From a virus, in the IMG/VR virus record IMGVR_UViG_3300046168_000058, positions 4,375-68,374 of that record: 64,000 bases of DNA; one strand, 5' to 3'. Positions 31,001-62,332 of this stretch are shown here, piece after piece. Within the stretch, counting starts at the first letter, position 1, and every line of letters starts with the position of its first letter. The position numbers and the translations under genes were made by a program. Below the pieces are notes generated by a model. That model made no database searches, had not been told where the DNA came from, and was given only the letters and a program-made list of their open reading frames with translations.

Positions 31001-34000
31001 AACTAACGACTTCTGATACCTTTTTAAATTTTCAATAGACTTCTCAATCGCCTCTGCTTCTTTATCACCGGCATCTAACTTTTTAAGCTCCTCTTTGTAC
31101 TGTTCAATTCTGCGACCAGCTTCTTTGAACATTCTATCGGTCAATGCCTTGTATCTGTACTGCCAGGTGCTCTCAAAAAGTTCGTTGCGACTCTCAAAGT
31201 TCTTACCAAGTGCAACACTTATCACATGCTGCTCATCAAGGCTAGGATCTGAGTTCATCAGGTCTATACGATTCTTTGCCTTCCTCTCAAGATCGATGGC
31301 TTGTTGAATAGCGTATGCAAAGTATGTGGTGCCTTTCTCGCTCTGAAAGCCTCCTATAGATCTAGCTTTGTTAGGTCCTTCTACTAAGTCACCGTCCTCA
31401 TCCTTTGTCTTGGGTATGTAAGTCATTGGCTCGTTACGAGTACCCGTAGGATTGAGCATGCCTGCCCTTATAGACTTAACATTTACTATGTAATCCGATT
31501 TAGAAATGTCACTACCAAGAAAGTCCCAGTCTTTTCTCTCACCAGGTTTAAAATTTTCAATAAACTGAAGCAGAGTGGCTTGACCATTACTAAGATTGTT
31601 CTTTTTCCACTCACCGTCTTTATTCTTTGACCAGTATGTAATGTTTTTGTTGGGTCCTGTATTCAAAGCTCCAAGCTTCATTCGCATATTCGTACGCTTA
31701 CCACCTGCATCTACATAATAACTTGGGTGCGGCATTTCGCTCCACATGAAAGCTTTAGATTCGGGTATCAGAGCCTCTCGGTATTCTCGGACAAATTTTA
31801 GCGTCTTTTCAGCGTCCTTGATCTCCTTCTCAAGGTTTACCAATTTACGGAGAGGGCTAAAGCTTTCTACCTTAGTGTAGTCTTTTTTCTTCTGCTTTTT
31901 CTTAGAAACCTTAAATCTAATCTGATAACTTTTTTTACCAAGCTTAGCTCTATACTTCTTTAACTGTGCCTGAATCTGTTTATCGCTTATCGCAGCCGGA
32001 TCAATCATGTCGGTCTGCGTAGTCTCCTTAAAATATGCTCGGTTTTTCTTAGTAAGCTTTCCAATGTTTTTGAACTTACCTCCTACAATCTTTTGGACAA
32101 ATTCCTGTTTTGTCTTTTTGTCCTTTAAAATATTAACCACCTCAACAGTGTCGAATTTGTAGTCGGAATCGCCTTTCTTAATCCATTTGTCTGCAAGCTT
32201 GGATAGAGTTTTCTGATCTCCATTCTCAGAGGCTTTTGTCCATAACTCCTTCTCCTTATCAGTTGCAAAGCTAGGGGCTTTAGTTGTAGTCAGAGTCGCG
32301 TAGTTTTTACGATCAGCTTCAAGACCACGAACAAGTTCAGCTTCTCGATTTTGAAGTAGCTTTAAAGCTTCATCATGCTCAGCCTGCGAAAGATATAAAT
32401 CCTCCTCTATCTCAATAATACTGGGCATCTTTACAATGCCTCGTTCACCCTTAGCACCCAGATCTGAGTGGACTTTATCCTCCGCAAGATGTCTCGCGGC
32501 GTACAAATCCCCAAAAAGCGAGTTTGACATTAGATCTTTTAGACCAAACGCTTTTTCAATAATTTGAGCTATCGATGCGCCCTCACCAAGTGCTTTCTTT
32601 GTTTTGTTGTATAAGGCTTTAAATTTCTTTGGATCCGCTAAAGTGGCTTTCATCGCAGCCTGCTTTTTAAGCGTGTTCTTCAAAGCTTTTCTACCAAACT
32701 CATTCTCAAACTCTTTAGCTGCTTTGGTAGCTTCTGCCCGAGTCTTAAAATACTTAGTCTCCACCTTACCTCGAAGACCAGGTGTCGATAAGGTTACCCT
32801 AAATCGATTGCCCTTTTCCCACTCAGATTTTTCACGCTTAGTGTCGTAGGGACTGCGACCAACAATACCTGGCTGAGGTTTATCTTTAGGTATGTCCGGA
32901 ACTTTGGGTTTCTCTTTATACTTATTTAATTCTCCTGGAGTTAGATCTCTAACGGTGCCGTCTGGTAGTTCAATCTGAGTGACCGTTTTCTTATCATCAC
33001 CTGCAAGGGTTTGTTTAATCGTCTTTTTTACGATCTTACCTTTGACTTTTTTAGTGGGTCTTCCTTTTACCTTTTTCTTAACCACGCTCCCGTCTGCACC
33101 GACCTCTTCAATCTCCTTTTCTACATCAGGTAAGCTCTTGTCAGGATCTTCAACTTCAACCTCAAATAACTCAGGCTCTTTGGGAGCTCGCTCCTTAGCA
33201 CCCTCTCCGGTCTCTTTAATTTCGGGCTCGGCAAAATCAACCTCCTTCATCTCCTGCACCCGACCTCTAGGAAGAAGCTGGGCTGTGCGGGACATGTCAG
33301 CAATTTCCTGGTCTCCGTATGTTTGATCTAAACTAGAATCGCGATCCTTCTCAACCGCCGTGGCTACTTCTACCTCACGATCAGTCCAGAATGATGTGTT
33401 AGTATCTAAAGCATTCTTACCAACAAAGGTGTTAAAATCTTTAGCGAAATTAGCACGCTCCTTTGGTGTAGTAAACTCGCCTTTAATTCTACCAACAAGG
33501 AAGTTTAAACCTTCCATATCACTCAGCCCCGATATAGCGGATGAGCCTTCAGGAGCCCTCATATTCTCCGCATTAAAATTAGTGCGAGTACCTGCGGAAT
33601 CTACATTCTTAAAGCTAAACTTCTTACCGCTTGGGCTCCTGCCCATATGCTCCAATATCTTTGCAGATAGCTGATCCTTCATGGATCCGCCAAGCTTTTC
33701 AGAACCGGCGTATTTTTTAAGAAAGGGGAAAGCATACTTACGAAGCCAGCTCTGCATTTCAGTCTTAACAGACTTATCAACCTTACCTCCTGCAAGGATG
33801 TTTACGAACTGCATACTGAACCATTCATCAGCCGCGTGGAGAGGACCTTTCTTTTGGAGCTGCTTATAGCGTTTCTGTATCTGTTTTTGCTCCGCTTCGG
33901 AATATTCGCTGAACATTTTTCCGCGAACACCGTACTCCTCCTGCTCGGCAAAAGCGGACAGCTTCTCCTCATAGCTCAACCCATCGTATATGGTGAGTAG

Positions 34001-43325: not shown

Positions 43326-43676
43326 TTAGTTAATAACCCAGCTCTTAGACTTACCTTTTTTGACGGCGATGTAACCATCGTCATCAACAAAGAGAGTAAG
43401 AACGCATTCCTGTAAGGAATCTTTCTTAACTTTACGTATCTTGCCAAAGATTCGATCGTCATAAGTGTTGATGGTTTTACCACTCAACGGGCCATGATCG
43501 ATTTCACAAGTAACAGCGGTGAACTTGCCTTCACCGTCTTTACGTTTCATCTTCACCACGGCAGTGATGACAGCTGAATGCTGTGGATCTTTAGGATCGA
43601 AGATACTAGGATTAACAGAATTTGAACTACCGCCACCTGCTGGCGCGGTTCCTTTGTGTATTTTCTTAATAGACAT
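43326..43676 (-). CDS. monocistronic basic beta-rich protein (possible OB-fold)
   Basis: 116 aa, bracketed by the conserved repeat upstream and a terminator downstream. Confidence 0.65.
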   Translation of the reverse strand: MSIKKIHKGTAPAGGGSSNSVNPSIFDPKDPQHSAVITAVVKMKRKDGEGKFTAVTCEIDHGPLSGKTINTYDDRIFGKIRKVKKDSLQECVLTLFVDDDGYIAVKKGKSKSWVIN

Positions 43677-43737
43677 ACCTCATGAAATGGGGAAACAATA
43701 TTAGTAACAGTCACCTTAATGATAGTAAGCTAGCGGA
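43677..43737 (-). promoter_or_regulatory. copy 1 of ~60-bp conserved element (putative early promoter/leader)
   Basis: ACCT.ATG.AATGGGGAAA.AATAT...ACCTT(T)AATGATAGTA(A)GCTAGCGGA shared with 51364-51423. Confidence 0.65.
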
Positions 43738-43799: not shown

Positions 43800-44153
43800 C
43801 TACGAACTGAACAACTGCATAACCATAGGATGCAAATATTTTATAGTGTCCATGAACTCATTGTGTTTTGCGAACGATGGTGAACCACCTGTTAACCAGA
43901 CAGATCCTTGGTCGTGAACCAGAGAATAGCTTGTACTAGGAACATCAATTTGAGTATAGCTCCAGTTATTGTGTCCCCATTGTACACGGTAGTGAACATT
44001 GTATGCACTTTTAGATATACATACAGTATCGCGTGGTAGTTCTGGTTTGTTACAACTTGCACTGTGCATAGGTGCTTCAATGTCGTTGAACTTTAGTTTG
44101 GCAGCAGTGCCACGATTAGTGGCAAAGCTGTAAGGTAATGGTGTGTGTTGCAT
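43800..44153 (-). CDS. hypothetical early protein
   Basis: 117-aa ORF, last gene of the island operon. Confidence 0.55.
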   Translation of the reverse strand: MQHTPLPYSFATNRGTAAKLKFNDIEAPMHSASCNKPELPRDTVCISKSAYNVHYRVQWGHNNWSYTQIDVPSTSYSLVHDQGSVWLTGGSPSFAKHNEFMDTIKYLHPMVMQLFSS

Positions 44154-44157
44154 GATA

Positions 44158-46287
44158 TTAGATGGTTACTGCGTTGATGTATTTATGGATGTGATTGGCG
44201 ATATCGTTTTTGTTTTCTGCCCAGGTTCTGATGGTGACAGTGTCAAGCAATGGATAGTTTCGCGTCATGTATTCCGACATATCTTTGAGGTATTCAGAAC
44301 GCTCAACTAGTTTTAGTCTGTATAAAACAGAGAACAGATTGGTGAGGTTGTATCTGTCAGATAGTTGAGTTTGCCCGTGATAGTAACTTGAATTTTTGTG
44401 GTAGTGTACTAATACACGACCGTAATTCGCGATGTCTTGATTGTCACAATTTACAATTATGTCAGCTAACTCTCGGTCATAGTTGGAGTGAGTGTCTTTT
44501 GATGTAACTTGTGCATACAATTTAGATTGATCAGGATTAGCTTTTTCCCATGTTGCAAACAATTCTGCGATATATGCATCAAGTGTAATCCATTTGTTAT
44601 CAAGTTTTTTGACATGATGTTTTTTGACACCGTGAATGACAGGAGTAAGCGTGCTTAAATTAGACATATCAGACAGGAAGCGTATAGCTTTTTGTATTTG
44701 CTCAAGATAATCGAGCCAGTCTTCGTGGCCTTGCCAATCGAAGCGATCGAGTGGGACATATACAAAGCGTCCGTCAGCCATTGCTGTAGTTGGAGCTTCT
44801 TTAGATAATCTAGCAGACTTGAGTGTGTTAGGGCTAAGTGTACATACATTTACACGAACAGGTTTTTGTGTATTGCCGTTGGTGATAGTGCTGGCTGTAC
44901 GGTTAGCTTTGAGTGGTTCGATATTATCGAGATCTATGTAATCACCTGGTATCAGTTTAGGTTCAACATAATCAAGACGGCTACGAGGAATGACATAGTA
45001 TCTTTCCATTTGTGGATTCTTAGATTCATGCTGAAGCGTGCGTATGCGTCGAGTGGCATTGTTGTTAGCAATCTTGTCATCTGAATATACACAAAGTTTG
45101 GTGTATTTGGTTAGTGATGTAGACACTGCATCACCTGATTTGTTGCGCCATACATTGTCAGAAGATCGCCATGATTTCTGTTGCTCATGCATTCTGATGC
45201 TGGTTGTACCGAACTTTATTGATGATATGAGTGGAAGGCCGCGCCATGTGCATTTTGATACAATAGATTTATGTATGCCGCCAGGTATCAAGGCAGCGTA
45301 TTTATCTGCTGTGATGGATGCTTGAACACGAGAAGTTGCTGCTTTAACGCTTTTGTTAGTGCGGTTTACAAGATCAAGTAGCATGTTATTTGTCATTGCG
45401 ACAAGTGCATTGCGTGTACGATCGGTGTACTCGAGAGATTCACGATTGGCAGCTATGTCGACAGCACCAAGTGGTGCGTATAGAATAACACTGTTGGCTT
45501 GAGCTAACGATCCGGCATCGCTGTTAATGTTTAGTTGATTGTAATCAATCGGATAGCATATGTTACCCATGACAAGACTCGCACCGCCGTAGTGACGACC
45601 GTGACGGTATTGGTTTGAATCTTCGAATGATTGCAGTGCCCAGTCATCGGTTGATTCAACAATATTTATATCAATTAGTTTTTCATTCGATGTAGGTTTG
45701 ACACGCCAGTATTTGAAGAACTGATGTGCTTTGCTGATGCATGAGTTGATGTCATCTTTGCGTATAGCTACGATAACTTCAGTACCTGTTGGTCTGTTGA
45801 TGTTATCAATTTTGCTGATCATTGATATTGTACCGCGTTTGGATTCATCAATCCGTGCATGCCATGTTGTGATGTGTGATCGGGTAAAGCTGACGACTTG
45901 GAAGTCATCACCGTATGCGAAGCCAGCTTTGCAACCGATACCAAGGCAACCTGTGTAATCGTTTGATGATCGCTTAGTTGATGCACCGTATTTGACATAC
46001 AGATTGCAAACATCGTCATCAGATAAACCCTTGCCGAAGTCACGGAATGATAGTTCTGGTTTTGCAATGGTTGGTAGTTGTACATCAATTGGATTGTCGT
46101 TGCCTGCTTCGATGTTGGCGTCAGCTGCATTGGTGCTGTATTCACGAATGACAGCGAGTAGTTTGTCGGAGTATATTTGTGAACGAAGAATACCCATGAT
46201 GTGAGATAAGTCAGATTCTTCGATGCCGAAGTCAGCGGCTTTTGTTATGTTAGTGCTGTAGTTAGATGTATTAGTTGATAATTTCAT
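44158..46287 (-). CDS. rIIA: rIIA-like protein (GHKL/Hsp90-type ATPase N-terminus)
   Basis: ILRSQIYSDKLLAVIREYSTNAADA, RDFGKGL, YGASTKR.SND.TG.LGIGCK, GTEV, IAANRESLEY; start placed at MKLSTN (46287). Confidence 0.85.
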   Translation of the reverse strand: MKLSTNTSNYSTNITKAADFGIEESDLSHIMGILRSQIYSDKLLAVIREYSTNAADANIEAGNDNPIDVQLPTIAKPELSFRDFGKGLSDDDVCNLYVKYGASTKRSSNDYTGCLGIGCKAGFAYGDDFQVVSFTRSHITTWHARIDESKRGTISMISKIDNINRPTGTEVIVAIRKDDINSCISKAHQFFKYWRVKPTSNEKLIDINIVESTDDWALQSFEDSNQYRHGRHYGGASLVMGNICYPIDYNQLNINSDAGSLAQANSVILYAPLGAVDIAANRESLEYTDRTRNALVAMTNNMLLDLVNRTNKSVKAATSRVQASITADKYAALIPGGIHKSIVSKCTWRGLPLISSIKFGTTSIRMHEQQKSWRSSDNVWRNKSGDAVSTSLTKYTKLCVYSDDKIANNNATRRIRTLQHESKNPQMERYYVIPRSRLDYVEPKLIPGDYIDLDNIEPLKANRTASTITNGNTQKPVRVNVCTLSPNTLKSARLSKEAPTTAMADGRFVYVPLDRFDWQGHEDWLDYLEQIQKAIRFLSDMSNLSTLTPVIHGVKKHHVKKLDNKWITLDAYIAELFATWEKANPDQSKLYAQVTSKDTHSNYDRELADIIVNCDNQDIANYGRVLVHYHKNSSYYHGQTQLSDRYNLTNLFSVLYRLKLVERSEYLKDMSEYMTRNYPLLDTVTIRTWAENKNDIANHIHKYINAVTI

Positions 46288-46351
46288 AGTATTTATAGTT
46301 GTTGTGTGAGTTGAGCAGTTTGTTGACATGCTCAGGTCATATGGTGTGTGG

Positions 46352-47308
46352 TTAGGATGGAAGTTCCATGAATCTGATTGTGAAATCATTCATGTGATTA
46401 TCGAAGCCGAAGTCGGCGTGGTAGTGACTTTGATCTATTATGCAGTCACGGATATCAGACATACCTACATTTGGGAATGCATGTTGTACTTCTCGGAAGT
46501 AAACAGGTACATCATTATGGACACGAGCATCAAGCCAGTCAAACAATGCATTGCTGTCAACTGATGAAACACCGTAGCCACCGTTGTTGAGTTTAGCGCG
46601 GCTGGTATTTTCTGCGATGACTGTATATTTGCATACACGCAGTTTACCGTAATCACATTCGTTAGGTACAGATACGATGTCTGCTGGACTATATTCGACA
46701 GTCATTAGTTTGCCATCGTCACCAGCCCATGAGTCAGCATAGTCATGTGAACCTACATGGAAGCCTGATGAGCAGCCGTGATCTGGGTTGTCGTCAACAC
46801 CAGACCGAGGCATTGATAGTACTTGGCCGACGCTGTTGTCGAACTTGCCAGAGTATTTATCTTTGTAGTCATCACGCACACCTTTGTAACCGATGAGATT
46901 ACCTGTTTTATTCATGGGCATACCGCTGTGTTTGATGAAGTTGTATGCTTGCTGACGACAGTTGTACGATGGATTGTCGTGCAACTTTTCGATGAAGCGA
47001 AACCAGCGATCAATGTCGCTTGCACCTTCTGATACAAGGTCGATTAGTTTTTGTGCTTCTGCTGAATGAAGCTTGTTGCCATCAAGGAATACTTTGTTAC
47101 CGCGAACAGTAACGCGTCCGTTAGATACAGACTTGAGAACATTTGATTCATCAAGTAGATCGCGAACGGTTTCTTCATCACCTTTTTTGATTGCATCAAT
47201 TAATGGACGGTAGTTCATTCGGTCACTGGTGATAGTGACGGCGTTATGGTTTATGAGATCGTGTACGAATACAGATTCATCTTGGTATGAGTATGCTATA
47301 TTATTCAT
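46352..47308 (-). CDS. rIIB: rIIB-like protein
   Basis: G.LIGYKGVRDDY.D, NSVG.V.SMPR..VDDN....CSSGFHVG, PADIVSVP...KLRVCKY.V. Confidence 0.85.
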   Translation of the reverse strand: MNNIAYSYQDESVFVHDLINHNAVTITSDRMNYRPLIDAIKKGDEETVRDLLDESNVLKSVSNGRVTVRGNKVFLDGNKLHSAEAQKLIDLVSEGASDIDRWFRFIEKLHDNPSYNCRQQAYNFIKHSGMPMNKTGNLIGYKGVRDDYKDKYSGKFDNSVGQVLSMPRSGVDDNPDHGCSSGFHVGSHDYADSWAGDDGKLMTVEYSPADIVSVPNECDYGKLRVCKYTVIAENTSRAKLNNGGYGVSSVDSNALFDWLDARVHNDVPVYFREVQHAFPNVGMSDIRDCIIDQSHYHADFGFDNHMNDFTIRFMELPS

Positions 47309-48084
47309 AGATATTTTGCCCAATATAGGCTGTTTGGTTGATTTTGGATTTGGTCCCAGAATATGTTGCGAGCAATTACTGGTGGGACATCGTATGCTTT
47401 GGATAGCATAAGCCAGTAGTTCTCGTAGTAGTGGTATTGTGCTGGTGAACCTGATTTGTCAGGGTCGAGCCAACCGAATGCTTTCCACATGTGACGATCG
47501 ATGCATATGACTTGAGCAGTCAATGGGTAGATCATCTCGAGTGCGAAGCTGGTTTTAGCTAGACCAAGCTTGGGCAGGTTATCTGTAATGACATTGCGGA
47601 AGCGTTGCCATTGAACACTGTTTTGTTTTACGAATATGTTGGAGTCCCATAGTTCGTGTAGCTTGTCGATACCGACAGCTTTGATATTGTACATACCGCC
47701 AGGTGTATCTTTGAGTATACTAGACAGTTGGTTCAGCGATACATTATCGTATAGATTACGAATAGCATCATACTGAATACAACTGTTGAGCCAGCTTGTG
47801 TGTACTGTGCAGTATGCAAAGCGGAAGCGATTGATTTCTTCGTGATCAGACCGAGGACGCAAGTCAATCCATTGATTGATATAGCGTGCTTTAGTATACG
47901 GTGTAATACTAGCGAAGAACTTTGTTATACGCTTACGATGCACACGAGGTATTTGCACGATACCCTGTCCACCCCGATAGCTTGAGAAGCGTAAGCGCTT
48001 TGCTGGCTTCGCTGCCCGCTGGTTGGGTGCCGTGAATAAGTTGAGCGAAGTCTGGTCCGCGTTTGTATGCGTGTGAGTCGTCAT
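47305..48084 (-). CDS. HhH-GPD superfamily DNA glycosylase-like protein
   Basis: LPKLGLAKTSF HhH motif and VICIDRHM catalytic-Asp motif; true start may lie downstream. Confidence 0.7.
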   Translation of the reverse strand: MTTHTHTNADQTSLNLFTAPNQRAAKPAKRLRFSSYRGGQGIVQIPRVHRKRITKFFASITPYTKARYINQWIDLRPRSDHEEINRFRFAYCTVHTSWLNSCIQYDAIRNLYDNVSLNQLSSILKDTPGGMYNIKAVGIDKLHELWDSNIFVKQNSVQWQRFRNVITDNLPKLGLAKTSFALEMIYPLTAQVICIDRHMWKAFGWLDPDKSGSPAQYHYYENYWLMLSKAYDVPPVIARNIFWDQIQNQPNSLYWAKYL

Positions 48085-48697
48085 TGTCGATTTCTAGTCC
48101 TTTTTTGTTAGCTTCTTGTTTTGAGTATACAACTTGAGCAGATTTTAGATTATGGGTTGTGATGAGGTGGTCATGTTTACCGCCCCATGATGCATTGAGT
48201 TCGAAGTTGGATGGAATGTGTTCCATGTTAGCAACCCATAGATCAATGCGTTTAGTGTAGCTGTAGAACCAAGTTGGTGCAAAGGCACGAGCTAGATCAC
48301 ACCAAGCCAAGAAGTAGGATTGGTTGAAGAAGTCGCCACCTATGTGTGCGCGTACAATAGGTCGTTGTTGATGGTTACGGTGATAGTTATCGTGCAGCGG
48401 TCGTAGACTGTTGAACAATAGCTTGAACATTTGTTTCCTACTTTTCTTTCGTAATAGAAGGAAGTTGTTCCATCGTTGTTTGCGTATAGCTGAGTGACGA
48501 GCTTCCATAGTTGCTGCATAGCATCTGAACTTGGTTGAGTCGCCATCTGTGATTTTACCGGTTGTTTGGTCAGCTTTTGACAGACATTCGTCTGCCGCCG
48601 GGCACGAGTGTCCTGACGGCAGACTGAGATGTTTGATTCTGTCTGGTAACTTTGCGTTACTAGCTGACCAGCGTAACGTTGTGTTAGCTGATGTCAT
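47933..48697 (-). CDS. GP88-like protein (Cys motif, radical-SAM-like pattern)
   Basis: NAKL...LSLPSGHSCP....C...CYA...VRAHIGGDFF...Y...W...FYSYTK. Confidence 0.7.
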   Translation of the reverse strand: MTSANTTLRWSASNAKLPDRIKHLSLPSGHSCPAADECLSKADQTTGKITDGDSTKFRCYAATMEARHSAIRKQRWNNFLLLRKKSRKQMFKLLFNSLRPLHDNYHRNHQQRPIVRAHIGGDFFNQSYFLAWCDLARAFAPTWFYSYTKRIDLWVANMEHIPSNFELNASWGGKHDHLITTHNLKSAQVVYSKQEANKKGLEIDNDDSHAYKRGPDFAQLIHGTQPAGSEASKALTLLKLSGWTGYRANTSCAS

Positions 48698-48896
48698 AGT
48701 ATTTATTTATTTTAGGTGAGTATAGCGTGCTACATTGTAAACAGGGCGTTGTACCATATGTAGACTTTTGTTTGTTACATATAGGACAGCGACTTAAGCT
48801 GTTTATTTTGTAGTAAGTTGCTGTTGCTTCTCGTATCTCTGCAGGTGTGTATTTAGCACGGTTGCCAAGAATTTTTAGAGCACGAGCATAACTCAA
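48684..48896 (-). CDS. small zinc-finger protein
   Basis: CPIC...CLQC. Confidence 0.45.
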   Translation of the reverse strand: MSYARALKILGNRAKYTPAEIREATATYYKINSLSRCPICNKQKSTYGTTPCLQCSTLYSPKINKYYDIS

Positions 48897-49682
48897 TTAG
48901 TTGAGTTGAAGCTGTGATTGAATTGTATCAGCTGGGTTAGTTAGTTGTACATTGCAGAAACGATCGAACACTTTGTGCAATGCGATACCGCGTTGTGCTG
49001 AGTTAGCGATTGAGGTTCTACATTCTTTGTGAATTTCAGTGAATGCATTGAATGCAGACCAGGCATTGCGATCAGCAAATGCATCGTGTCGTGGATCAAG
49101 GTATTCAGTATGTACTTTTTCAGCTTTGCTTTGAGGTAGTGCACCGTTGATGATAGCGTCACCTAGTATTTGGTAGAAGTTATTCATAGATAGTTCTGTT
49201 TCCATATACTTGTTGAAGCGGGTCTCGTTGTTTGACCATGTCTGTACTACTTGATCGAGCATGTTTGATACACGATTGTTGAAGTTAGTGTGTACATGTT
49301 TGGTATGTTTGCTGGAGATTATGTGATCACCAGTGAAGTAACCATTTGAACATACAAGCACTTGGCCACCTGAACATGCGGATGCGCCGAAGCGTTTGTT
49401 GTGACTGTTACGAATGCCGAGCATGTTACGATAGACACCGTTTTCGCTTTCCATATACATGGTAGCAAACATGTCAGGATGTGGTTGGCGTACTTTATTT
49501 TCTACTACATCAACAATTTGATACTTGAGTTCATCAATATGAAGATCGCGTTTTTCTGCTTGCTCAATGACAGTTGTCATAACCTCATGATGCGGCATTG
49601 GTTGCCAAGTAGCAGTAGGTGCTGGCGTTGATATTTGTGTTAATCCGTTGAAGTCAACGGTGCGTGAGTTATTTAGTTTCAT
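48897..49682 (-). CDS. DUF932-like protein
   Basis: TPAPTATWQPMPH, LGIRNSHNK, VLVCSNG.F.G, KHT, NAWSAFNAFTE. Confidence 0.8.
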   Translation of the reverse strand: MKLNNSRTVDFNGLTQISTPAPTATWQPMPHHEVMTTVIEQAEKRDLHIDELKYQIVDVVENKVRQPHPDMFATMYMESENGVYRNMLGIRNSHNKRFGASACSGGQVLVCSNGYFTGDHIISSKHTKHVHTNFNNRVSNMLDQVVQTWSNNETRFNKYMETELSMNNFYQILGDAIINGALPQSKAEKVHTEYLDPRHDAFADRNAWSAFNAFTEIHKECRTSIANSAQRGIALHKVFDRFCNVQLTNPADTIQSQLQLN

Positions 49683-49893
49683 AATCTGTTATGCTATTAC
49701 TGTTTTGGTTGGTGTGTGGTATATTGTTTCAGCCCAGCCACGCATTACGATGTGTGGTTGTGACTTGTTATGATGCGATTCGATAGGCACATCGCATTTG
49801 ATGTTTGTCGTTAGTAGACATTTGTTTTTGTAGTGCAACGACAGGCACTTGTGTTGTTTGTTGTAGTGAAAGAAGAACCGACGATGATTGCTG

Positions 49894-50280
49894 CTAGGCC
49901 GACATAGCGATGACATTGTTTGGTATGGGTTGAGTTGTTGTTGTCAGGTCGATGTGTTGAGCGATTGGTATAGGTGTAACAACGCATTCGACACCATGCA
50001 GACGCACTGAAGTGATAGTGTCGAGGTTGAGATTACGGTAGCCGCGTTCAGCTTCGAAGGTGTGTCCATCCATGGTCCACATTAGATATATTGATATATA
50101 TGAATGTTTTAGACTTGGAGGCATGCCAGTACCTTTGATGTGCTTGGTTACTCCAAGTCGTGCATTTGCGCAGCGTTCTGTTCCATCTTTTTTAGTCCAA
50201 CATACATTGAATATTTTGCCACGCGTAGTAAGTAGCAATTGTTCAAGTTTTGAACGGTGTATAATTATTGGTTTGTCCAT
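49894..50280 (-). CDS. SH3/WYL-like small phage protein
   Basis: GKIFNVCWTKKDGTER..NARLGV.K..KG...GYRNLNLDTI; start at MDKPII. Confidence 0.7.
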   Translation of the reverse strand: MDKPIIIHRSKLEQLLLTTRGKIFNVCWTKKDGTERCANARLGVTKHIKGTGMPPSLKHSYISIYLMWTMDGHTFEAERGYRNLNLDTITSVRLHGVECVVTPIPIAQHIDLTTTTQPIPNNVIAMSA

Positions 50281-50290
50281 GTAGTGTGTA

Positions 50291-50857
50291 TTAGTTTGAG
50301 GTTGAGAACTTTTGCCAGATTTCAGTATCGAGACTGCTGACAGATTTGTCTTGTTGTGCAGCAAGCCCAATGAACATAGCTTCGAGGCGTTTGTATTCAT
50401 CGAGATCTTGCGGTGTTTGTTCTGGTATTGGATACTTAGGGAACTGTTGCTGTAAGTATCGCAAAATGTGTACATCAAGTACTGCAATGTCTTCGTATGG
50501 ACGGCTATGCAGAACAAAGAAGGATGCAGTTTTGGGACCGATACCTGGTATGTTTTGCATTAGCTCATCGCGATGTACTTTGAAGAACTGACCATACGGT
50601 TTGTATTGACTGATTTTACGCCAACAAGCTGACAGTCTTTTGTACTGACCAATGCGTGCATTCCGAAGTGCAGCAGTGATAGTGCGACCGTCTTTGTTGA
50701 GTAGATCAGATGGTTTGATTGATGTGAATATACTGTTGAATGCAGGTGTAATAGTCTGAGACTTTTTACCTGGAGTTACAGTACACCACAGAAGGAATAG
50801 CAGTAGCTCTTCAAGCGACCGTTTTTCTTTGGTTATGTTGTTGTAGTCGATTTGCAT
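50291..50857 (-). CDS. HhH-GPD DNA glycosylase (Ogg2/8-oxoguanine glycosylase-like)
   Basis: IPGIGPKTASFF..HS....IAVLDVHILRYL...Y..LE..F......LD..IW. Confidence 0.8.
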   Translation of the reverse strand: MQIDYNNITKEKRSLEELLLFLLWCTVTPGKKSQTITPAFNSIFTSIKPSDLLNKDGRTITAALRNARIGQYKRLSACWRKISQYKPYGQFFKVHRDELMQNIPGIGPKTASFFVLHSRPYEDIAVLDVHILRYLQQQFPKYPIPEQTPQDLDEYKRLEAMFIGLAAQQDKSVSSLDTEIWQKFSTSN

Positions 50858-50874
50858 GATGGTGTGTGGTTGGA

Positions 50875-51303
50875 TTAGTTGGCCGCGGGTTTGTATTCGT
50901 TGGCATTAGGACGAGCCATTGCACCGGTCATACCATTGATTAGGAAGAATGCTTGCTGCATACCTTTACCAAGCATTTTGTACTCTGGTGTCTTGATGTA
51001 GAAGTTTTCGCGTAGAATGCGTTCATCAAATTCTGACATGTTATCGAACATGTGTTTCATTTGACTCATGACTACTTCAAGCGTGTGAGACATGATCTTG
51101 GATTGGAACTCAATGGTCTGTTGTTTGTACGCATTGAATTCGTCTACACCTACGCGTTCCCATAGTGGTTTATGGTTTAGTTCATTGAGTGTGAGCCGTT
51201 GCTCTTTCGTTAGCGGTTTTGGCACGATTAAATCTACTTCGTTATATATTTGTAGTAGGTTGCCTAGTTGTTGCTCTGATGTGATAGTGATTTGTTCGTT
51301 CAT
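50875..51303 (-). CDS. hypothetical early protein (first gene of island operon)
   Basis: 142-aa ORF downstream of conserved element copy 2. Confidence 0.65.
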   Translation of the reverse strand: MNEQITITSEQQLGNLLQIYNEVDLIVPKPLTKEQRLTLNELNHKPLWERVGVDEFNAYKQQTIEFQSKIMSHTLEVVMSQMKHMFDNMSEFDERILRENFYIKTPEYKMLGKGMQQAFFLINGMTGAMARPNANEYKPAAN

Positions 51304-51363
51304 AGCTGTATGTAGTTGTTAGTGATTTGTAGTATGTAACAGGGATATATTTACACCTATTAC

Positions 51364-51423
51364 ACCTGATGGAATGGGGAAAAAATATAGAGCAACTAAC
51401 CTTTAATGATAGTAGCTAGCGGA
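51364..51423 (-). promoter_or_regulatory. copy 2 of ~60-bp conserved element
   Basis: Direct repeat of 43677-43737, two conserved blocks. Confidence 0.65.
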
Positions 51424-51432
51424 TGATCCGTA

Positions 51433-51462
51433 TTGACAAAGGCTAAGCCTTTAAGTAAAAGT
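51433..51462 (+). promoter_or_regulatory. sigma-70-like promoter for the candidate sRNA
   Basis: TTGACA at 51433-51438, 17-nt spacer, TAAAAG(T); the -10 is imperfect. Confidence 0.55.
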
Positions 51463-51467
51463 CTAAA

Positions 51468-51542
51468 TATTAGTTGATAATCTCATATGGTGTGTGGTTA
51501 TTTTCTATTTTAGGACTGTGTTAGCGCACAGTCCTTTTTTTT
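51468..51542 (+). ncRNA. candidate trans-acting antisense sRNA (~75 nt)
   Basis: Promoter upstream, terminator at the 3' end, no ORF; complementary to several gene leaders (see findings). Confidence 0.6.
51512..51542 (+). terminator. intrinsic terminator
   Basis: AGGACTGTG-TTAGCG-CACAGTCCT followed by a T run. Confidence 0.85.
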
Positions 51543-51611
51543 GTGAACGAGTGACAACCAATGTAATACATCTGATTGCAGGTCAACTACGATTGCCAGA
51601 TACTTATTTAC

Positions 51612-51854
51612 GTGAGTAAACCAAGAAACTACAAAAACGAATATAAGTCATACCACAAGAAACCTGTTCAAAAGAAAAGAAGGGCTCAACGAAATGCTGC
51701 CCGGAGAAAGATGACAAAGGCAGGTTTAGTTCGGAAAGGTGACGGCAAGGATGTCGATCACAAGAACCGAAATACAGCCGACAATAGAAGGAAAAACCTT
51801 AGGGTTGTCTCAAAGTCCAAAAATCGTAGCTTTTCCCGCAAAAAGAAAAGGTGA
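51612..51854 (+). CDS. small HNH-family protein
   Basis: RNYK.EY...RRAQRNAARR...GDGKDVDH...N...NLRV.S...NRS; GTG start at 51612. Confidence 0.8.
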   Translation: MSKPRNYKNEYKSYHKKPVQKKRRAQRNAARRKMTKAGLVRKGDGKDVDHKNRNTADNRRKNLRVVSKSKNRSFSRKKKR

Positions 51855-51983
51855 AACACACCCATATCTTGCTCGATGCGGATGATGGGCTAATAATTTC
51901 GGTCGAATCCGAAGATGAAAATCTCGACTGGAGTCCTATTTTGGTATATTTATCACAAAATGATGAATAATAATAACATTCTC

Positions 51984-52176
51984 ATGGTTATATGGTTTAT
52001 GGTTGCTAACCCATATCCTGGGGAACGCACTCTGGGGGGTACAGGGCGTAGCCCCTATATAATATACTTAATATCTATACTTTTAATAAATAAAACCATA
52101 AACCATATAGAGTCTCAGCTCCCCTTGATAATCAAGGACTTCTGAAATAGGGTTGATCTCCTGGTTTTATGGTTTC
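51984..52176. repeat. ori-like region: 16-bp perfect inverted repeat with ATGGTT iterons around an AT-rich core
   Basis: TATATGGTTTATGGTT (51989-52004) / AACCATAAACCATATA (52094-52109). Confidence 0.6.
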
Positions 52177-52179
52177 TCC

Positions 52180-52443
52180 TTAAGCTCCTCTGAGCCTACG
52201 GAGTTCGGCCTCCAGCTTAGCAGCTTTGAGCTCACGCTCCATTTGCTTATCGGCAAACTCCTCGATTTTTCCGACTAAAGCTGTACGAATCACATCAGAA
52301 ATTGACGAATTCTCTACTTTAGCTACTTCGCAAAGCTGCTCGTACATGGTTTTTGGGAGACGAACTGCGCATGTGATATCTTTGTGTTCACGATTCAGTG
52401 CAAGATTCTTCCTAGGTAGTTTAAGAGGTTTCTTTTTACTCAT
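52180..52443 (-). CDS. ribbon-helix-helix transcriptional regulator with C-terminal coiled coil
   Basis: TCAVRLPKTMYEQLCEVAKVENSSISDVIRTAL; start at MSKKKP. Confidence 0.75.
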   Translation of the reverse strand: MSKKKPLKLPRKNLALNREHKDITCAVRLPKTMYEQLCEVAKVENSSISDVIRTALVGKIEEFADKQMERELKAAKLEAELRRLRGA

Positions 52444-52595
52444 TTTGACTTTTATTTTAGGGTGAGTTTGTTCAGCCCATGTATAACACTTTATATACAT
52501 TTGCAAGCTTTTTTCTAACTATTTTTTCACAGCTTGACCGTAAAACTTTCTTCCAATCCCTTGCATACCGGTGCTAGATAATGTAGAACATTGTT

Positions 52596-53494: not shown

Positions 53495-53640
53495 AACTTT
53501 TTTCGAAAAATGTTTGACGAGTGTATAACATTGTGATTCATTGAAGACTTAGTTTCATTTAATCATCCCTCCTTCCGGTGCGCTAACACTAGGGGGAGGG
53601 ATTTAAAAACCACACACCAAACCACACACCACTAGAGATT

Positions 53641-53919
53641 ATGAAAGATAAATTAAATCCTGATGCCGAGGCCGCGCTTCGGAAATTATTATTAGAGATC
53701 TGGAGCTTTCAGACTAAATTCGAGGAGGCTGACATTCCCGAGTCTGATTGGGATATGCCGTTGGATGATTCCGAGCCGACTAAAAACCAAGAGCTCTGCG
53801 ATTTTCATGTAGCGCTGGACGGCGAGGCGTACAGAGCGCTCCAGCTTCTTGGCTTTGACAGCTATGAAGAGCTTGAGGAATCCGTATGGGCTAAGAAACC
53901 TGAGGAGGCCGCGGTATGA
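53641..53919 (+). CDS. acidic hypothetical protein
   Basis: First gene after a promoter, hairpin and tandem AACCACACACCA leader. Confidence 0.65.
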   Translation: MKDKLNPDAEAALRKLLLEIWSFQTKFEEADIPESDWDMPLDDSEPTKNQELCDFHVALDGEAYRALQLLGFDSYEELEESVWAKKPEEAAV

Positions 53920-57369: not shown

Positions 57370-57550
57370 GAAAACTAATACCTTACATCCTACGACCTTT
57401 GATCTTAATCCAAAGACTTTTGACCAAGAAGCGTGAAGAGAAGTTTGAGCCGAAAAGACCTTTTCTTTGATTTTTTACTTTTCTTTTTCGTACGCAAGTG
57501 TTATACATTTGCATAACACCACACACCAACCCACATAACCCAATATTATT

Positions 57551-57853
57551 ATGAGATTAAATCCCGATTTTTTCGAGGATCCTGAAAGCGATCCAGAGAG
57601 CCAACTTGATGACGCAATACAGGAGATTACTAAGTTTTCATCATTACCTGCAGAGACACAATCCGAAATATATCAATACGGTGAGCAAGTTAGCCACATG
57701 ATTGCAACAGCACCCAAGGATGTAGAGGATCCTATGGCATACTACTTAGGGTTTCAAGCTATGCAGATTAATGCTTTACAGAAATCGTTAGTGAAGGCTC
57801 AGAAGATAGCGGTATTGCTAGCAGGAAAAATAGACGATCTTTCTAATGAGTAG
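57551..57853 (+). CDS. hypothetical protein
   Basis: Follows operator and ACCACACACCA leader. Confidence 0.6.
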   Translation: MRLNPDFFEDPESDPESQLDDAIQEITKFSSLPAETQSEIYQYGEQVSHMIATAPKDVEDPMAYYLGFQAMQINALQKSLVKAQKIAVLLAGKIDDLSNE

Positions 57854-59623: not shown

Positions 59624-60346
59624 ATGGCTAAATCATCATTATCAGAGTCAAAGACAGACGAAACGGCAGTAGTAGAAGCTACTGGAGATATCATAGAAGG
59701 ATCACCAACATCGGGGGCATTGGCGGTGTCCGGCGCGGGTGTAATCGGAGACATCGATGCAAGCGACATCGAATTTCCTAAGCTAGCAATAGCTCAGGGA
59801 GTTGGACCGCTTAGCGATAACTTCAAGAAAGGAGCAATCGTTCTTGATGCCGAGCACGAAATCAGCGACGGGACAACACCAGTCGAGTTCACCGTTCTAA
59901 GGATCGGTAAATTCTTCGAGGAGAATATTCCCTTCGGATCTGGAGAAATCCCAAGAATCGTAACGCCGGCAGAGCAGAAGAAGATCGGGGGGACGACACA
60001 GGGTCACCGTGATGGTGAGAACTGGGTTCAGCCCGATTGGAAACCATTGGCTGACGCCTTGGTCTGCATTAAGGGTGATAACGAGGATGTGTTCCCGTAT
60101 AACTTCGGCAAGGATCATTATGCCATCGCTATGTGGCGAATCCGTAAGACCGCCTACGAAGGCGGGGCTAAACCGATTCTCACGGCAGCGGGCACCTACT
60201 ACAGAAACGGGCTTCGCAACGGCTCATTTCTCCTGACCACTCAGAAGAGAGTGTTTAGTGGAAATGCTGTCCACGGACCAAAAGTTGTTCGCGGTAAGAA
60301 GCACGACGAGAAATTCGTTAACTGGTTAGCATCAGAATTTTGCTAA
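59624..60346 (+). CDS. putative ssDNA-binding/annealing protein
   Basis: Lies between exonuclease and polymerase; IDASDIEFPKLAIAQ..G motif. Confidence 0.5.
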   Translation: MAKSSLSESKTDETAVVEATGDIIEGSPTSGALAVSGAGVIGDIDASDIEFPKLAIAQGVGPLSDNFKKGAIVLDAEHEISDGTTPVEFTVLRIGKFFEENIPFGSGEIPRIVTPAEQKKIGGTTQGHRDGENWVQPDWKPLADALVCIKGDNEDVFPYNFGKDHYAIAMWRIRKTAYEGGAKPILTAAGTYYRNGLRNGSFLLTTQKRVFSGNAVHGPKVVRGKKHDEKFVNWLASEFC

Positions 60347-60357
60347 TCTCATAATTA

Positions 60358-60430
60358 GCGTGGTGTGTAGCGCCGAGGGTTTAGTGACTTTTTCCCTCGG
60401 CGCTCGATCGCCACGCCCAACCACACACCA
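60358..60430 (+). promoter_or_regulatory. long hairpin plus AACCACACACCA leader upstream of DNA polymerase
   Basis: GCGTGG..AGCGCCGAGGG / CCCTCGGCGCT..CCACGC stem; motif at 60419-60430. Confidence 0.65.
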
Positions 60431-60439
60431 CCACAATTC

Positions 60440-62332
60440 ATGAAATATATAGCATTAGATTTTGAGACCTTCTATTCGAAGGACTACTCAATTGTAGGTC
60501 AGAGTACCTACCAATATGTCAATCACCCCGAGTTCGACGCCTATCTTGTTTCTTTATGGAACCCTGAGATCAGCTATGTTGGACAGACTAAAGAGTACCC
60601 CGATTGGAAGAAGTTAGACGGGTACACCTTTATCGCCCACAACGCGTCTTTTGACCAACGCTGTTTCGAAAAATGCGTTGAGCTTGGCATCATCCCCGAC
60701 ATTAAAGTCGAGTGGATCTGTACAGCCGACATGTGCGTGTACTTTCAGTATCAGAGAAATCTGAAGGGAGCCGCCAAAGCTATCCTCAACGCCGACATGG
60801 ATAAGGAAGTTCGTGAAAACATGAAGGGTAAAACCTGGGATGACATGATCGCCATGGATGAATCCAAAGCTGTTCTTCAGTACGCGTTGGACGATTCGAA
60901 ATATACTTATCAGATATTTGAGGAGCTCTACGACCAATGGCCTGAGACCGAACGCCAATTATCTAAGATGACGCGGCAGATGGCATGGGACGGCATTCCT
61001 GTGGACTACGATAAACTAATGGAGGGTATCAATACTTTGGAGGAACAGTTGTTCGAGGTGAAGAAAAACCTACCTTGGTACGATCAGATCGATCCGGACA
61101 CTAAGAAGAAGTATGTAGAATACTCTAAAAAGGCGATGGCATTGGAGTGCCGTAAAGCTGGAGTTGAGCCTCCCAAATCCATGGCCAAGGATAGCCCTGA
61201 GCTAGCGGAATGGATTAAAGAGCATGGGGACAAACTTAAGTTCGTCTCAGCCATGCAGAATCATAACAGGCTGAACATGCATCTAACCCGTATGAGAAGC
61301 GTTAAGAACAGGCTGACCGACGATAATAGAATGTCCTACAATCTAAAATATTTCGGAGCGGATGCTACCGGAAGATGGTCAGGCGACGCCGGTTTTAATG
61401 TCCAAAATTTACCTCGCGAGACCCGTTATGGCGTCAACATCCGTAACATGTTTTCTGCACCTGAGGGCAAGACCTTTGTCGTTGCTGACCTTTCGCAGAT
61501 CGAGCCTAGACTTACAGCATTTATCGCGGGTGATGAGGACTTCCTGAAATTAATCAAGCAAGGTATGAGTCCGTATGAAGCTCATGCTCGGCAGACCATG
61601 GGATGGACAGGAGGTAAACTCAAGGATGAGGATCCCGAGCTATACCTGCTGGCTAAGGTTCGTGTGCTTCAGCTTGGTTACGGCAGTGGATGGTTTAAGT
61701 TTGCGGAGACTGTAGCTCAGTACGGGCAACAGCAGATTCTAGACATGGGATTTTCTCGTAAGGATGAGATTCGCTTTGAGGAATTCGCTAACACTTACCA
61801 ACCCGGCAAAGGATCAATATACCCTACCCTATCTGAAAAAGAGAGAAGGCAGTGGGTTAATGCGTATATCCAGGTCTCAGACTTTCGTGACAAGAACCCA
61901 AAGATAACAGCGATGTGGAAGAAGCTCGACAGGGAGTACAAGATGGCAGCGGCTGAGGGTGACGATTTCTCTTTTGAGATTCCTAGCGGCAGAACCTTAC
62001 ATTATTTCTCATGTCAACATCAGCACGATGGGGTGACATGTAAAACTCAGAAAGGAGCATTGCGTAGAGTTTACCAATACGGAGCAAACCTTTTCCAGAA
62101 TGCAGTTCAGGCGACAGCCCGTGACTGTTTTGGGTTCATCATGACCAATCTTGAAAAGGCTGGAAAGAAGATCGTCCTTCATGTCCACGATGAAGTGGTC
62201 GTTGAAGTAGATGAAGACATGGCACTGCACGCAAAGGCTGACATTCAGGAGATCATGAAGCAGGGGCCAGAGTGGATGAAGGATGTCCCGCTCGACAGTG
62301 AAGCAATCATAACCAAGGAGTACACGAAATGA
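60440..62332 (+). CDS. polA: family A DNA polymerase with 3'-5' exonuclease
   Basis: ALDFET, AHNASFD, YALDD, TGRWSG, NVQNLPR, ADLSQIE, K...L..GYG, VHDE. Confidence 0.93.
   Translation: MKYIALDFETFYSKDYSIVGQSTYQYVNHPEFDAYLVSLWNPEISYVGQTKEYPDWKKLDGYTFIAHNASFDQRCFEKCVELGIIPDIKVEWICTADMCVYFQYQRNLKGAAKAILNADMDKEVRENMKGKTWDDMIAMDESKAVLQYALDDSKYTYQIFEELYDQWPETERQLSKMTRQMAWDGIPVDYDKLMEGINTLEEQLFEVKKNLPWYDQIDPDTKKKYVEYSKKAMALECRKAGVEPPKSMAKDSPELAEWIKEHGDKLKFVSAMQNHNRLNMHLTRMRSVKNRLTDDNRMSYNLKYFGADATGRWSGDAGFNVQNLPRETRYGVNIRNMFSAPEGKTFVVADLSQIEPRLTAFIAGDEDFLKLIKQGMSPYEAHARQTMGWTGGKLKDEDPELYLLAKVRVLQLGYGSGWFKFAETVAQYGQQQILDMGFSRKDEIRFEEFANTYQPGKGSIYPTLSEKERRQWVNAYIQVSDFRDKNPKITAMWKKLDREYKMAAAEGDDFSFEIPSGRTLHYFSCQHQHDGVTCKTQKGALRRVYQYGANLFQNAVQATARDCFGFIMTNLEKAGKKIVLHVHDEVVVEVDEDMALHAKADIQEIMKQGPEWMKDVPLDSEAIITKEYTK

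Follow-up and report, generated by a model that had tools for sequence, protein, structure and literature searches.

A candidate phage small RNA complementary to a start tag shared by early and replication genes

The IMG/VR virus record IMGVR_UViG_3300046168_000058 is a single-contig virus of 68,374 bp, of which a 64-kb stretch (64,000 nucleotides (nt), positions 4,375 to 68,374 of the record; hereafter the window, to which all coordinates refer) was analysed here. In a 270-nt divergent gap separating the leftward and rightward early gene blocks lies a compact unit composed of a promoter-like site, a predicted small RNA (sRNA) of about 75 nt (51468..51542, + strand) and an intrinsic terminator. 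The predicted RNA contains a 12-nt seed, TGGTGTGTGGTT in DNA letters and UGGUGUGUGGUU in the RNA (51488..51499, + strand), which occupies alignment columns that are invariant except at one site that changes with the tags, and is the exact complement of a 12-base tag, AACCACACACCA, found ahead of the start codons of early and replication genes of the same genome. Judged from sequence comparisons among related phages, we consider with moderate confidence that the locus is a gene for a trans-acting anti-leader sRNA, encoded on the + strand and complementary to the tags of the early and replication genes. An earlier note on this DNA, made from its letters and open reading frames (ORFs), had proposed such an RNA, and all the coordinates it gave were found again, including the TTGACA-17-TAAAAG arrangement, the hairpin and the T run.

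The tag is strongly enriched in the window, where AACCACACACCA has 16 matches at up to two mismatches against 4.37 expected, a number reached in 0/100 shuffles. At up to one mismatch there are eight copies (six exact and two with a single mismatch), all within 46.3-60.5 kb, and seven of these eight are on the strand that codes for the local genes, 2-54 nt 5' of an ATG, while the eighth is the mirror copy within the RNA locus (51488-51499, minus strand). Moreover, the tag is absent from the late region of both the window and a complete relative of 68.8 kb (G001), being limited to 46-61 kb of the former and to about 24 kb of the latter, which bears out the description in the earlier note of a sense-strand motif near early and replication starts that was not seen at late-gene starts. 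Among the leftward genes, the tag in the rIIA leader (46337..46354, minus strand) lies 54 nt from the start codon, that of the DUF932 gene (49710..49721, minus strand, one mismatch) 27 nt from its start, and that of the glycosylase gene (50860..50871, minus strand) inside the 17-nt spacer that follows a gene for a 142-amino-acid (aa) protein, only 2 nt before the ATG. Rightward, gene 53641 carries two tandem tags, the nearer at 9 nt, together with GAGATTAT over its ATG (53608..53642, + strand), gene 57551 a tag with one mismatch 22 nt before its start (57517..57528, + strand), and polA a tag at 9 nt (60419..60430, + strand). Within operons of the window and its relatives, the tag is placed past the stop codon of the preceding gene and 0-28 nt before the ATG, and its position is thus that of a ribosome-binding signal and not that of a promoter; a Shine-Dalgarno sequence is present in few genes of the window. 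The leader of a small gene at 52180-52443 (leader 52444-52510, minus strand) carries the tag in the related contigs L002 and L003 and none in the window, so that genomes with 94% identity differ by gain or loss of tags. A weaker site that the earlier note had listed near 44138 (44139-44150) lies within a coding start, and this weak match is probably due to chance.

Related loci, labelled below with L-numbers for contigs and G-numbers for genomes, were collected by several searches. A pattern combining the hairpin apex with the tag retrieved two IMG/VR contigs, 94% identical and both beginning to the right of the locus, and a search based on 142-aa protein homologues (alignment A1) added six metagenome loci, while a viral contig set searched with rIIA, the 142-aa protein and the A1 profile yielded no relatives. 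A 17-mer to the left of the promoter-like site (block 1, 51406..51422), which is invariant in all lineages, had six viral matches leading to four more lineages, the other two being chance matches in coding sequence; 11 bacterial or archaeal matches of the same 17-mer were rejected as chance, being accompanied by neither tag nor seed. Finally, a 17-nt word containing the seed occurred in 33 viral stretches, nine of which are orthologues of the RNA gene (five of them new). Another five (L023, L025, L036, L037 and L039) are leader-type copies, in which tag and start stand on the opposite strand; four of them (L025, L036, L037 and L039) are relatives, three (L025, L036 and L039) with further tags, and L023 shows only a weak polA match. 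The remaining 19 are single matches, 18 of them in contigs without any match to the window genome. Since unrelated contigs gave nothing beyond single matches of the seed word, we see no sign that the tag is a general signal of the host.

By these searches, the RNA unit was found once per genome in at least nine lineages (the window with L003 and L004, L005, L006-8, L009, L011, the L012 type, L014 and L034), the L012 type also being present in L029, L041, L045 and L050. All share a common order, starting with block 1, a gap of 6-30 nt, the -35 element, a 17-nt spacer, a weak TA box and a variable 5' arm, and continuing with CATATG or CATGTG leading into TGGTGTGT(G/T)G(T/A)T, a gap of 8-16 nt, a hairpin and a T run. 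The terminator hairpin is G+C-rich with sequences that are unrelated between lineages, and is followed by 5-9 T in all of them. A covariance model (R1) built from 10 of the sequences gave one match per source, at 50-87 bits, in 14 related sources, with 86.8 bits for the window and 62 bits for L034, which was outside the training set, and the next best match, at 29.8 bits, was the antisense of a tagged leader. Between L004 and the window the non-coding unit is about 95% identical, compared with 75% for the adjacent protein. The possibility raised in the earlier note that the locus is merely a remnant of a rearranged rIIA is contradicted by these findings, as the unit is present in all lineages found, beside the same leftward promoter block and with varying neighbours. 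A genome search detected no rIIA in G001, G003 and G004; L041, which has the same RNA type as G001, carries both rIIB and rIIA, and we therefore make no claim that any lineage is without rIIA.

The strand of the product can be read from the structure of the unit. In the lineage alignment, 8/9 terminator pairs show changes on both sides and 97.5% of the cells pair, and for the whole structure 95% of the cells pair, as compared to 80.7% in shuffles (0/500 reaching 95%) and 33-56% when the partners were slid. When both strands were folded, the terminator hairpin was more stable on the + strand in 7/7 lineages, by 0.8-6.3 kcal/mol. In addition, U.G pairs in the stems of L006-8, L009, L011, L012, L014 and L034 correspond to C.A mismatches on the other strand, and the reverse wobble case was found in none of the alignment cells. 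These wobbles stand at a similar place in the stem and probably do not represent six independent events, but they were never repaired toward the other strand. The T run is retained throughout, and three of four comparable leader hairpins have no matching A run. Viewed from the minus strand, the mirror copy lies upstream of block 1 and of a further sequence, block 2 (51364..51384), which together are likely a leftward early promoter; with the promoter blocks located downstream of it, the mirror copy falls outside the leftward messenger RNA (mRNA). We conclude that the predicted functional product is the + strand RNA ended by the terminator at 51512-51542. The claim of the earlier note that the locus is an independent + strand RNA gene thus gains support from the conserved -35 geometry, the seed, the compensatory changes in the terminator and the wobbles that fit the + strand only.

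Seed and tags were found to change together. Both tag variants were searched in the genomes G001-G004, and those with the G-type seed (...GTGTGGTT) carry only the C-variant AACCACACACCA, in 12 (G001), 10 (G003) and 11 (G004) exact copies, with no A-variant tag among these 33. G002, which has the T-type seed (...GTGTTGTT), carries six exact copies of the A-variant AACAACACACCA and no C-variant, and L005-L008, also with the T-type seed, have A-variant cores only. In trees of the helicase and the resolvase, each with eight rows and none left out, G002 is the sister of G001 (support 94/95 and 99/99), and L005 and L007 form a separate clade, from which it follows that the variant shared by seed and tags has switched at least twice, each switch having taken in the RNA together with every tag across about 24 kb. 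Co-variation of the seed with the leader motif, which the earlier note had named as a check of its proposal, is hence positive, with at least two switches on the gene trees. Taken together with the strand evidence, this co-variation indicates that the complementarity of the + strand RNA to the tags is what selection keeps.

The unit itself begins with a promoter-like site (51433..51461, + strand) composed of TTGACA (51433-51438), a 17-nt spacer and TAAAAG (51456-51461). The -35 is kept in all lineages as TTGACA, TTGACG, TTGACT or TTTACA, and its distance to the seed is held at 51-56 nt, while the gap between -35 and block 1 varies from 6 to 30 nt. The site resembles the TTGACG-17 early/middle promoter that heads the 53641 operon, and the RNA may hence be made together with its targets and not after them. 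A small hairpin within the promoter spacer (51440-51456) was dropped as a feature, as it is absent in L003, L005 and L006. The 5' end of the RNA was placed from the promoter and its 3' end from the T run. Its 5' arm (51468..51487, + strand) is complementary to the rIIA start (19/20), with a further 8 nt matching 53635-53642 and 10 nt matching 57550-57559. The RNA also has a 5' hairpin (helix 1, 51476..51504, + strand), in which the seed lies in the loop (UGG) and the 3' arm. Helix 1 is 92.9% paired over nine distinct sequences, and several of its G.U pairs fit the + strand only. CATA (CAUA in the RNA) precedes the seed, which extends the pairing over those tags that are followed by TATG. The terminator (51512..51542, + strand) is composed of a hairpin (51512-51535) with a stem of 9-10 bp and the loop TTAGCG, and of a T run to 51542, and is rank 2 of 24 terminator-like sites in 44-62 kb.

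With respect to coding, a + strand ORF of 41 aa at the locus runs through the terminator, and the minus-strand frames that follow an ATG differ in both length and sequence among lineages; this lack of conservation indicates that the locus is not coding. Nor is there a conserved gene opposite the RNA, and inspection of the sequence right of the terminator for a promoter on the minus strand, by eye and with the alignment, revealed nothing conserved across lineages. Read on the minus strand, the locus corresponds to the rIIA leader tag (18/18) joined to the rIIA start (19/20), with the segment that lies between two TATGA words omitted.

Beyond the seed, pairing is adapted to particular targets. 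The complementarity to rIIA described in the earlier note was recovered in full, 18/18 at the leader tag (46337-46354) and 19/20 at the start codon region (46269..46288, minus strand), so that the two blocks amount to 37/38 nt in the window. In three lineages, the variable 5' arm follows the rIIA start of the lineage itself; in G002 it matches 10/10 over the rIIA ATG and 10/10 in codons 3-6 of rIIB, and in L041 (L012 type) 7+3+4 nt with a 3-nt gap at the rIIA start. These matches were counted as exact complementarity, because a sliding scan of duplex energy was noisy and ranked long imperfect duplexes high. The leader of 53641 offers 12+12+8 nt complementary to the RNA. It also contains a hairpin (53566..53601, + strand), with a 12-nt apex (53578-53589) reverse-complementary to the terminator apex (51518-51529). 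Such reverse complements between the loops of terminator and leader hairpin occur in four lineages, whose stems are unrelated and whose loops comprise three distinct sequences, those besides the one in the window being TTGCAG against CTGCAA (L009 and L011) and CTGTAA against TTACAG (L014); the contact was not found in L005-L008.

Two structures in the tagged leaders are of separate interest. In the leaders of polA (60340-60440 in the window, and in L002, L005, L007, L019, L020 and L021), a sense-strand anti-tag, GGTGTG, is always present at -78 to -96 (-78 in the window), followed in order by a strong hairpin of variable sequence and the tag, an arrangement in which the anti-tag could sequester the tag in cis. 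Furthermore, a conserved leader hairpin, GACCTGAGCATGTC ... CTGCTCA, stands after the tag and before rIIA in the window (46300-46336, minus strand), in G002 and in L041, and precedes other genes in G001 and G003; on the L-numbered contigs, this hairpin lies at L018 9342 and 14911, L019 2180 and L020 16791.

If the RNA acts as we propose, a + strand transcript of about 75 nt would be made between the divergent early promoters, and its seed would pair with the 12-nt tag placed in 5' leaders and in short spacers between cistrons of the early and replication genes. The 5' arm would add gene-specific pairing over the rIIA start codon, and the RNA would thereby clamp both sides of the conserved hairpin that separates the rIIA tag from the start, while the terminator loop could also pair with the loop of 53641-type leader hairpins (in at least four lineages). 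Such pairing, of 12-18 nt at about seven tagged sites, would be strongest at rIIA and the 53641 leader. At or beside a start codon it would block the entry of ribosomes or lead to decay of the message, and rIIA and the other tagged genes would go down together. By analogy, repression is the most likely outcome of pairing, a suggestion we make tentatively; activation, processing and immunity against related phages are conceivable outcomes as well. An RNA made alongside its targets would suit a timer or a brake better than a late switch. The earlier note further pictured a developmental or dormancy switch to which leaderless late mRNAs would be immune, a proposal of which the absence of the tag from the late region was confirmed.

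Several observations weigh against this interpretation. The RNA is so far a prediction from sequence; four RNA libraries (X16, X17, X18 and X20) gave contigs on 50857-51295 and 51666-51939 and none on 51433-51542, a coverage that counts neither way, since the contigs are of low depth and small RNAs were not captured. Of the promoter in the earlier note, the -35, spacer and geometry are conserved, and the -10 has no T at position 6 in the window and is non-canonical in all lineages (TA and variable bases, mostly without a final T); moreover, a consensus promoter scan did not list the TTGACA-17-TAAAAG site. Its likeness to an early/middle promoter also means that a role in late shut-off is not implied. 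Helix 1 is supported mostly by one-sided changes, and 9/12 seed bases lie in its 3' arm; a seed that is partly paired in a weak predicted helix is compatible with target pairing, yet speaks against easy access. The 33-nt stretch at the 5' end of the RNA that the earlier note had matched to start regions is enriched in its 12-mer, but not in its second half, TATGAGATTAT, which has 23 matches in the window against 26 expected, and pairing past the 12-mer is therefore specific to single targets. Matches of ten bases to the 5' arm are near chance (by our own estimate about 0.7 expected in 20 kb, three seen), and only their position at start codons is notable. Of the loop contacts, those of L009 and L011 are weakened by a palindromic TGCA core, and the leader hairpins of these two fold better on the antisense strand. 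Lastly, the co-variation has exceptions, as one leader of G002, AACTACACACCA, mismatches the seed of its own genome, and a few tags carry one mismatch.

Part of this evidence would be accommodated if there were no RNA gene and the locus were another minus-strand copy of the tag in a series of hairpin, spacer, tag and ATG such as precedes gene 53641, being either the leading module of the leftward operon or a decaying duplicate of the rIIA or 53641 leaders, with a protein or the ribosome as reader of the tag. In polarity the mirror copy agrees with every tag of the leftward operon, which also counts against a separate RNA, and it has hairpin apex, 18-nt spacing and tag in common with the 53.6-kb leader, and 37/38 nt with the rIIA leader and start. 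Likewise, that all copies change jointly agrees with a common reader, and co-variation would be expected also with a protein or the ribosome as the reader of a tag of which the locus is just a further copy. Such a copy is unlikely, however, because the leftward promoter blocks lie downstream of it, because U.G wobbles and stabilities favour the + strand in 7/7 lineages, and because the T run is kept everywhere while the matching A run is missing in 3/4 leader hairpins. The -35 at a fixed 51-56 nt and the unconserved mini-frame point in the same direction, and a decaying relic would not hold about 95% identity while the neighbouring protein falls to 75%.

A + strand transcript could also be real and yet serve only as the terminated leader (attenuator) of the HNH-like gene downstream, controlled by read-through in cis, with the anti-tag as a by-product of an old inverted duplication. 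We find this improbable, even though the HNH-like gene is co-oriented in every lineage with sequence there and several weak + strand Rfam matches are to cis leaders (PyrR site, rimP, L20), all far below threshold. Neither the invariance of the seed amid a varying RNA nor its change only together with the tags is predicted by attenuation; the distance and sequence between terminator and HNH-like gene vary widely, and no alternative anti-terminator fold was found in the predicted structures. It is more doubtful still that the element works at the level of DNA, the 12-mer being a double-stranded regulator site whose orientation is irrelevant and the hairpin a terminator or insulator between divergent promoters. 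The location in the main divergent control region, beside the invariant 17-mer and palindromic operator-like words, would suit such a site; on the other hand, 33/33 exact copies in G001, G003 and G004 follow the local gene polarity, bar one mirror copy per genome, the tags stand in short intercistronic spacers inside operons, 0-28 nt before the ATG, which fits a signal at the RNA level, and a + strand terminator without an upstream + strand gene needs a + strand transcript to end.

The closest parallel to the tag that we are aware of is formed by the SAS (start-associated sequences) and ESAS (extended SAS) of Cluster K mycobacteriophages, described in 2011 by authors who left open whether they are read by a host or phage RNA or by a protein, and who reported an inverted repeat just upstream of about half of the SAS sites (PMC3203893). 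In a survey of 2025, their function is still given as unverified (PMC12699233). As far as these descriptions go, SAS and the tag are alike in being short asymmetric repeats located a few bases before start codons and often overlapping the preceding stop, and in occurring only in the non-structural part of the genome, in one orientation and with a single inverted copy per genome, and they are also alike in having upstream inverted repeats. In contrast, SAS is a 13-mer with the Shine-Dalgarno core GGGATAGGAGCCC, whereas the tag described here is C/A-rich, has no such core and is unrelated in sequence; the likeness is functional and not by descent. Also, no antisense RNA is known to have been proposed at the inverted SAS, while here the anti-tag copy is a candidate RNA gene. 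In Mycobacterium phage Anaya (L062 34871-34883), the single inverted SAS lies in a gene-free gap of 385 nt between gp96 and gp97, just after TTGACC, and simple scans of this gap showed no promoter or terminator. The RNA of the present phages is hence a candidate reader for SAS-type start tags, and a phage that encodes a conserved RNA mirroring its own tag and changing with it would offer a concrete reader for start tags that have had no known reader since 2011.

Phages are known to use both proteins and antisense RNAs to turn down their own messages. RegA of T4 is a protein that turns down the translation of many early mRNAs, rIIB included, at their initiation regions, a task in which the reader would here be an RNA. 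Small terminator-ended phage RNAs that act by base pairing include OOP of lambda and sar of P22, which overlap a single target on the opposite strand, whereas the RNA described here has its targets elsewhere and nothing conserved opposite to it. The c4 antisense RNA of the P1/P7 immI region and the CI RNA of P4 pair with repeated mRNA sites and block downstream expression, and in c4-type phages matched changes of RNA and target between relatives set the specificity of immunity. The c4 RNA is cut from the leader of its own operon and has two sites in one transcript; in contrast, the present RNA has a putative promoter and a terminator of its own, and its sites are distributed over about 8-12 genes in both divergent modules. 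C4 antisense RNA is reported to be required for full repression of ant (PMC8198154). In the literature that we searched, not including supplements and subscription journals, no description was found of a phage sRNA directed against a start tag that the phage's own genes share. If the proposal is true, one RNA of 75 nt sets the translation of a whole set of early and replication genes, rIIA above all, and would parallel, as an RNA, protein repressors like RegA of T4. The naturally occurring C-variant and A-variant pairs provide a ready-made compensatory-mutation experiment.

The pair of block 1 and block 2 recurs at 43677-43737, where it stands between a terminator, which it follows directly, and the gene at 43676, with the second copy of block 1 at 43719-43735 on the minus strand. 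Block 1 is unchanged even where the proteins of the lineages are only 60-65% identical, and block 2 forms a short inverted repeat with a 3-nt loop (CCCCAT, 3 nt, ATGGGG) in L009, L012 and L014. The pair may represent a phage-specific early promoter and recalls the hairpin promoters known from phages that inject an RNA polymerase of their own.

The HNH-like gene next to the RNA (51612..51854, + strand) encodes a very basic, lysine/arginine-rich protein of 80 aa and, wherever a lineage has sequence there, follows the RNA on the same strand at a distance of 70 to about 400 nt. The protein is 78-97% identical over 60-63 aligned residues (80-85% in most lineages), compared with about 65% for the helicase, and thus belongs to the best-conserved proteins of the phage group; no relative was found among solved structures. 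We regard as improbable, though worth stating, a scheme in which RNA and HNH-like protein form a pair, the RNA guiding the protein to the tags or being chaperoned to them by it, leading to cutting or processing at gene junctions of tagged early messages or DNA. The seed variant would then exclude superinfecting relatives that carry the same tag, and the single mirror copy of the tag would be a general design of anti-leader RNAs, which would also explain SAS-type motifs.

In the genome as a whole, the minus strand of 1-43 kb holds late and structural genes, including those for the portal and the terminase and an ORF of 3879 aa, and is followed at 44-51.3 kb on the same strand by an A/C-rich early block with rIIA, rIIB, DUF932, an Ogg-type glycosylase and the 142-aa gene. 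From 51.6 kb, the + strand carries a replication block composed of the HNH-like gene, resolvase, helicase, exonuclease, polA and a deoxynucleoside monophosphate kinase. No transfer RNA genes were found in the window, and Rfam at its gathering thresholds gave no match in the window, the C4 antisense RNA family included; the best sub-threshold match was ncS54, with 24.4 bits against a threshold of 43. The phage group is widespread in seawater and has no cultured relative, and neither blastn of 50800-52200 nor tblastn of the portal matched any phage isolate, the identity to cultured phages reaching at most 25.5% for polA and at most about 30% for rIIA. A host among the Bacteroidota is a guess only. 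An N4-like identity, prompted by the 3879-aa ORF (25064-36703, minus strand), was not established, as the PHROG matches of this ORF are to families of unknown function; these are large phage proteins only, matched at its C-terminal end. The early leftward genes have a coding strand that is C- and A-rich and poor in G (44000-52000), and the GC skew of the + strand becomes positive at 44 kb and not where the strands switch (51.4 kb). Within the late region, the palindromic box CAACCGRTTG has 26 matches at up to one mismatch (1470-42855) against 12.5 expected, and lies 42 nt upstream of the four late starts at 4654, 10036, 12990 and 38683, positions that fit late promoters with very short or no leaders.

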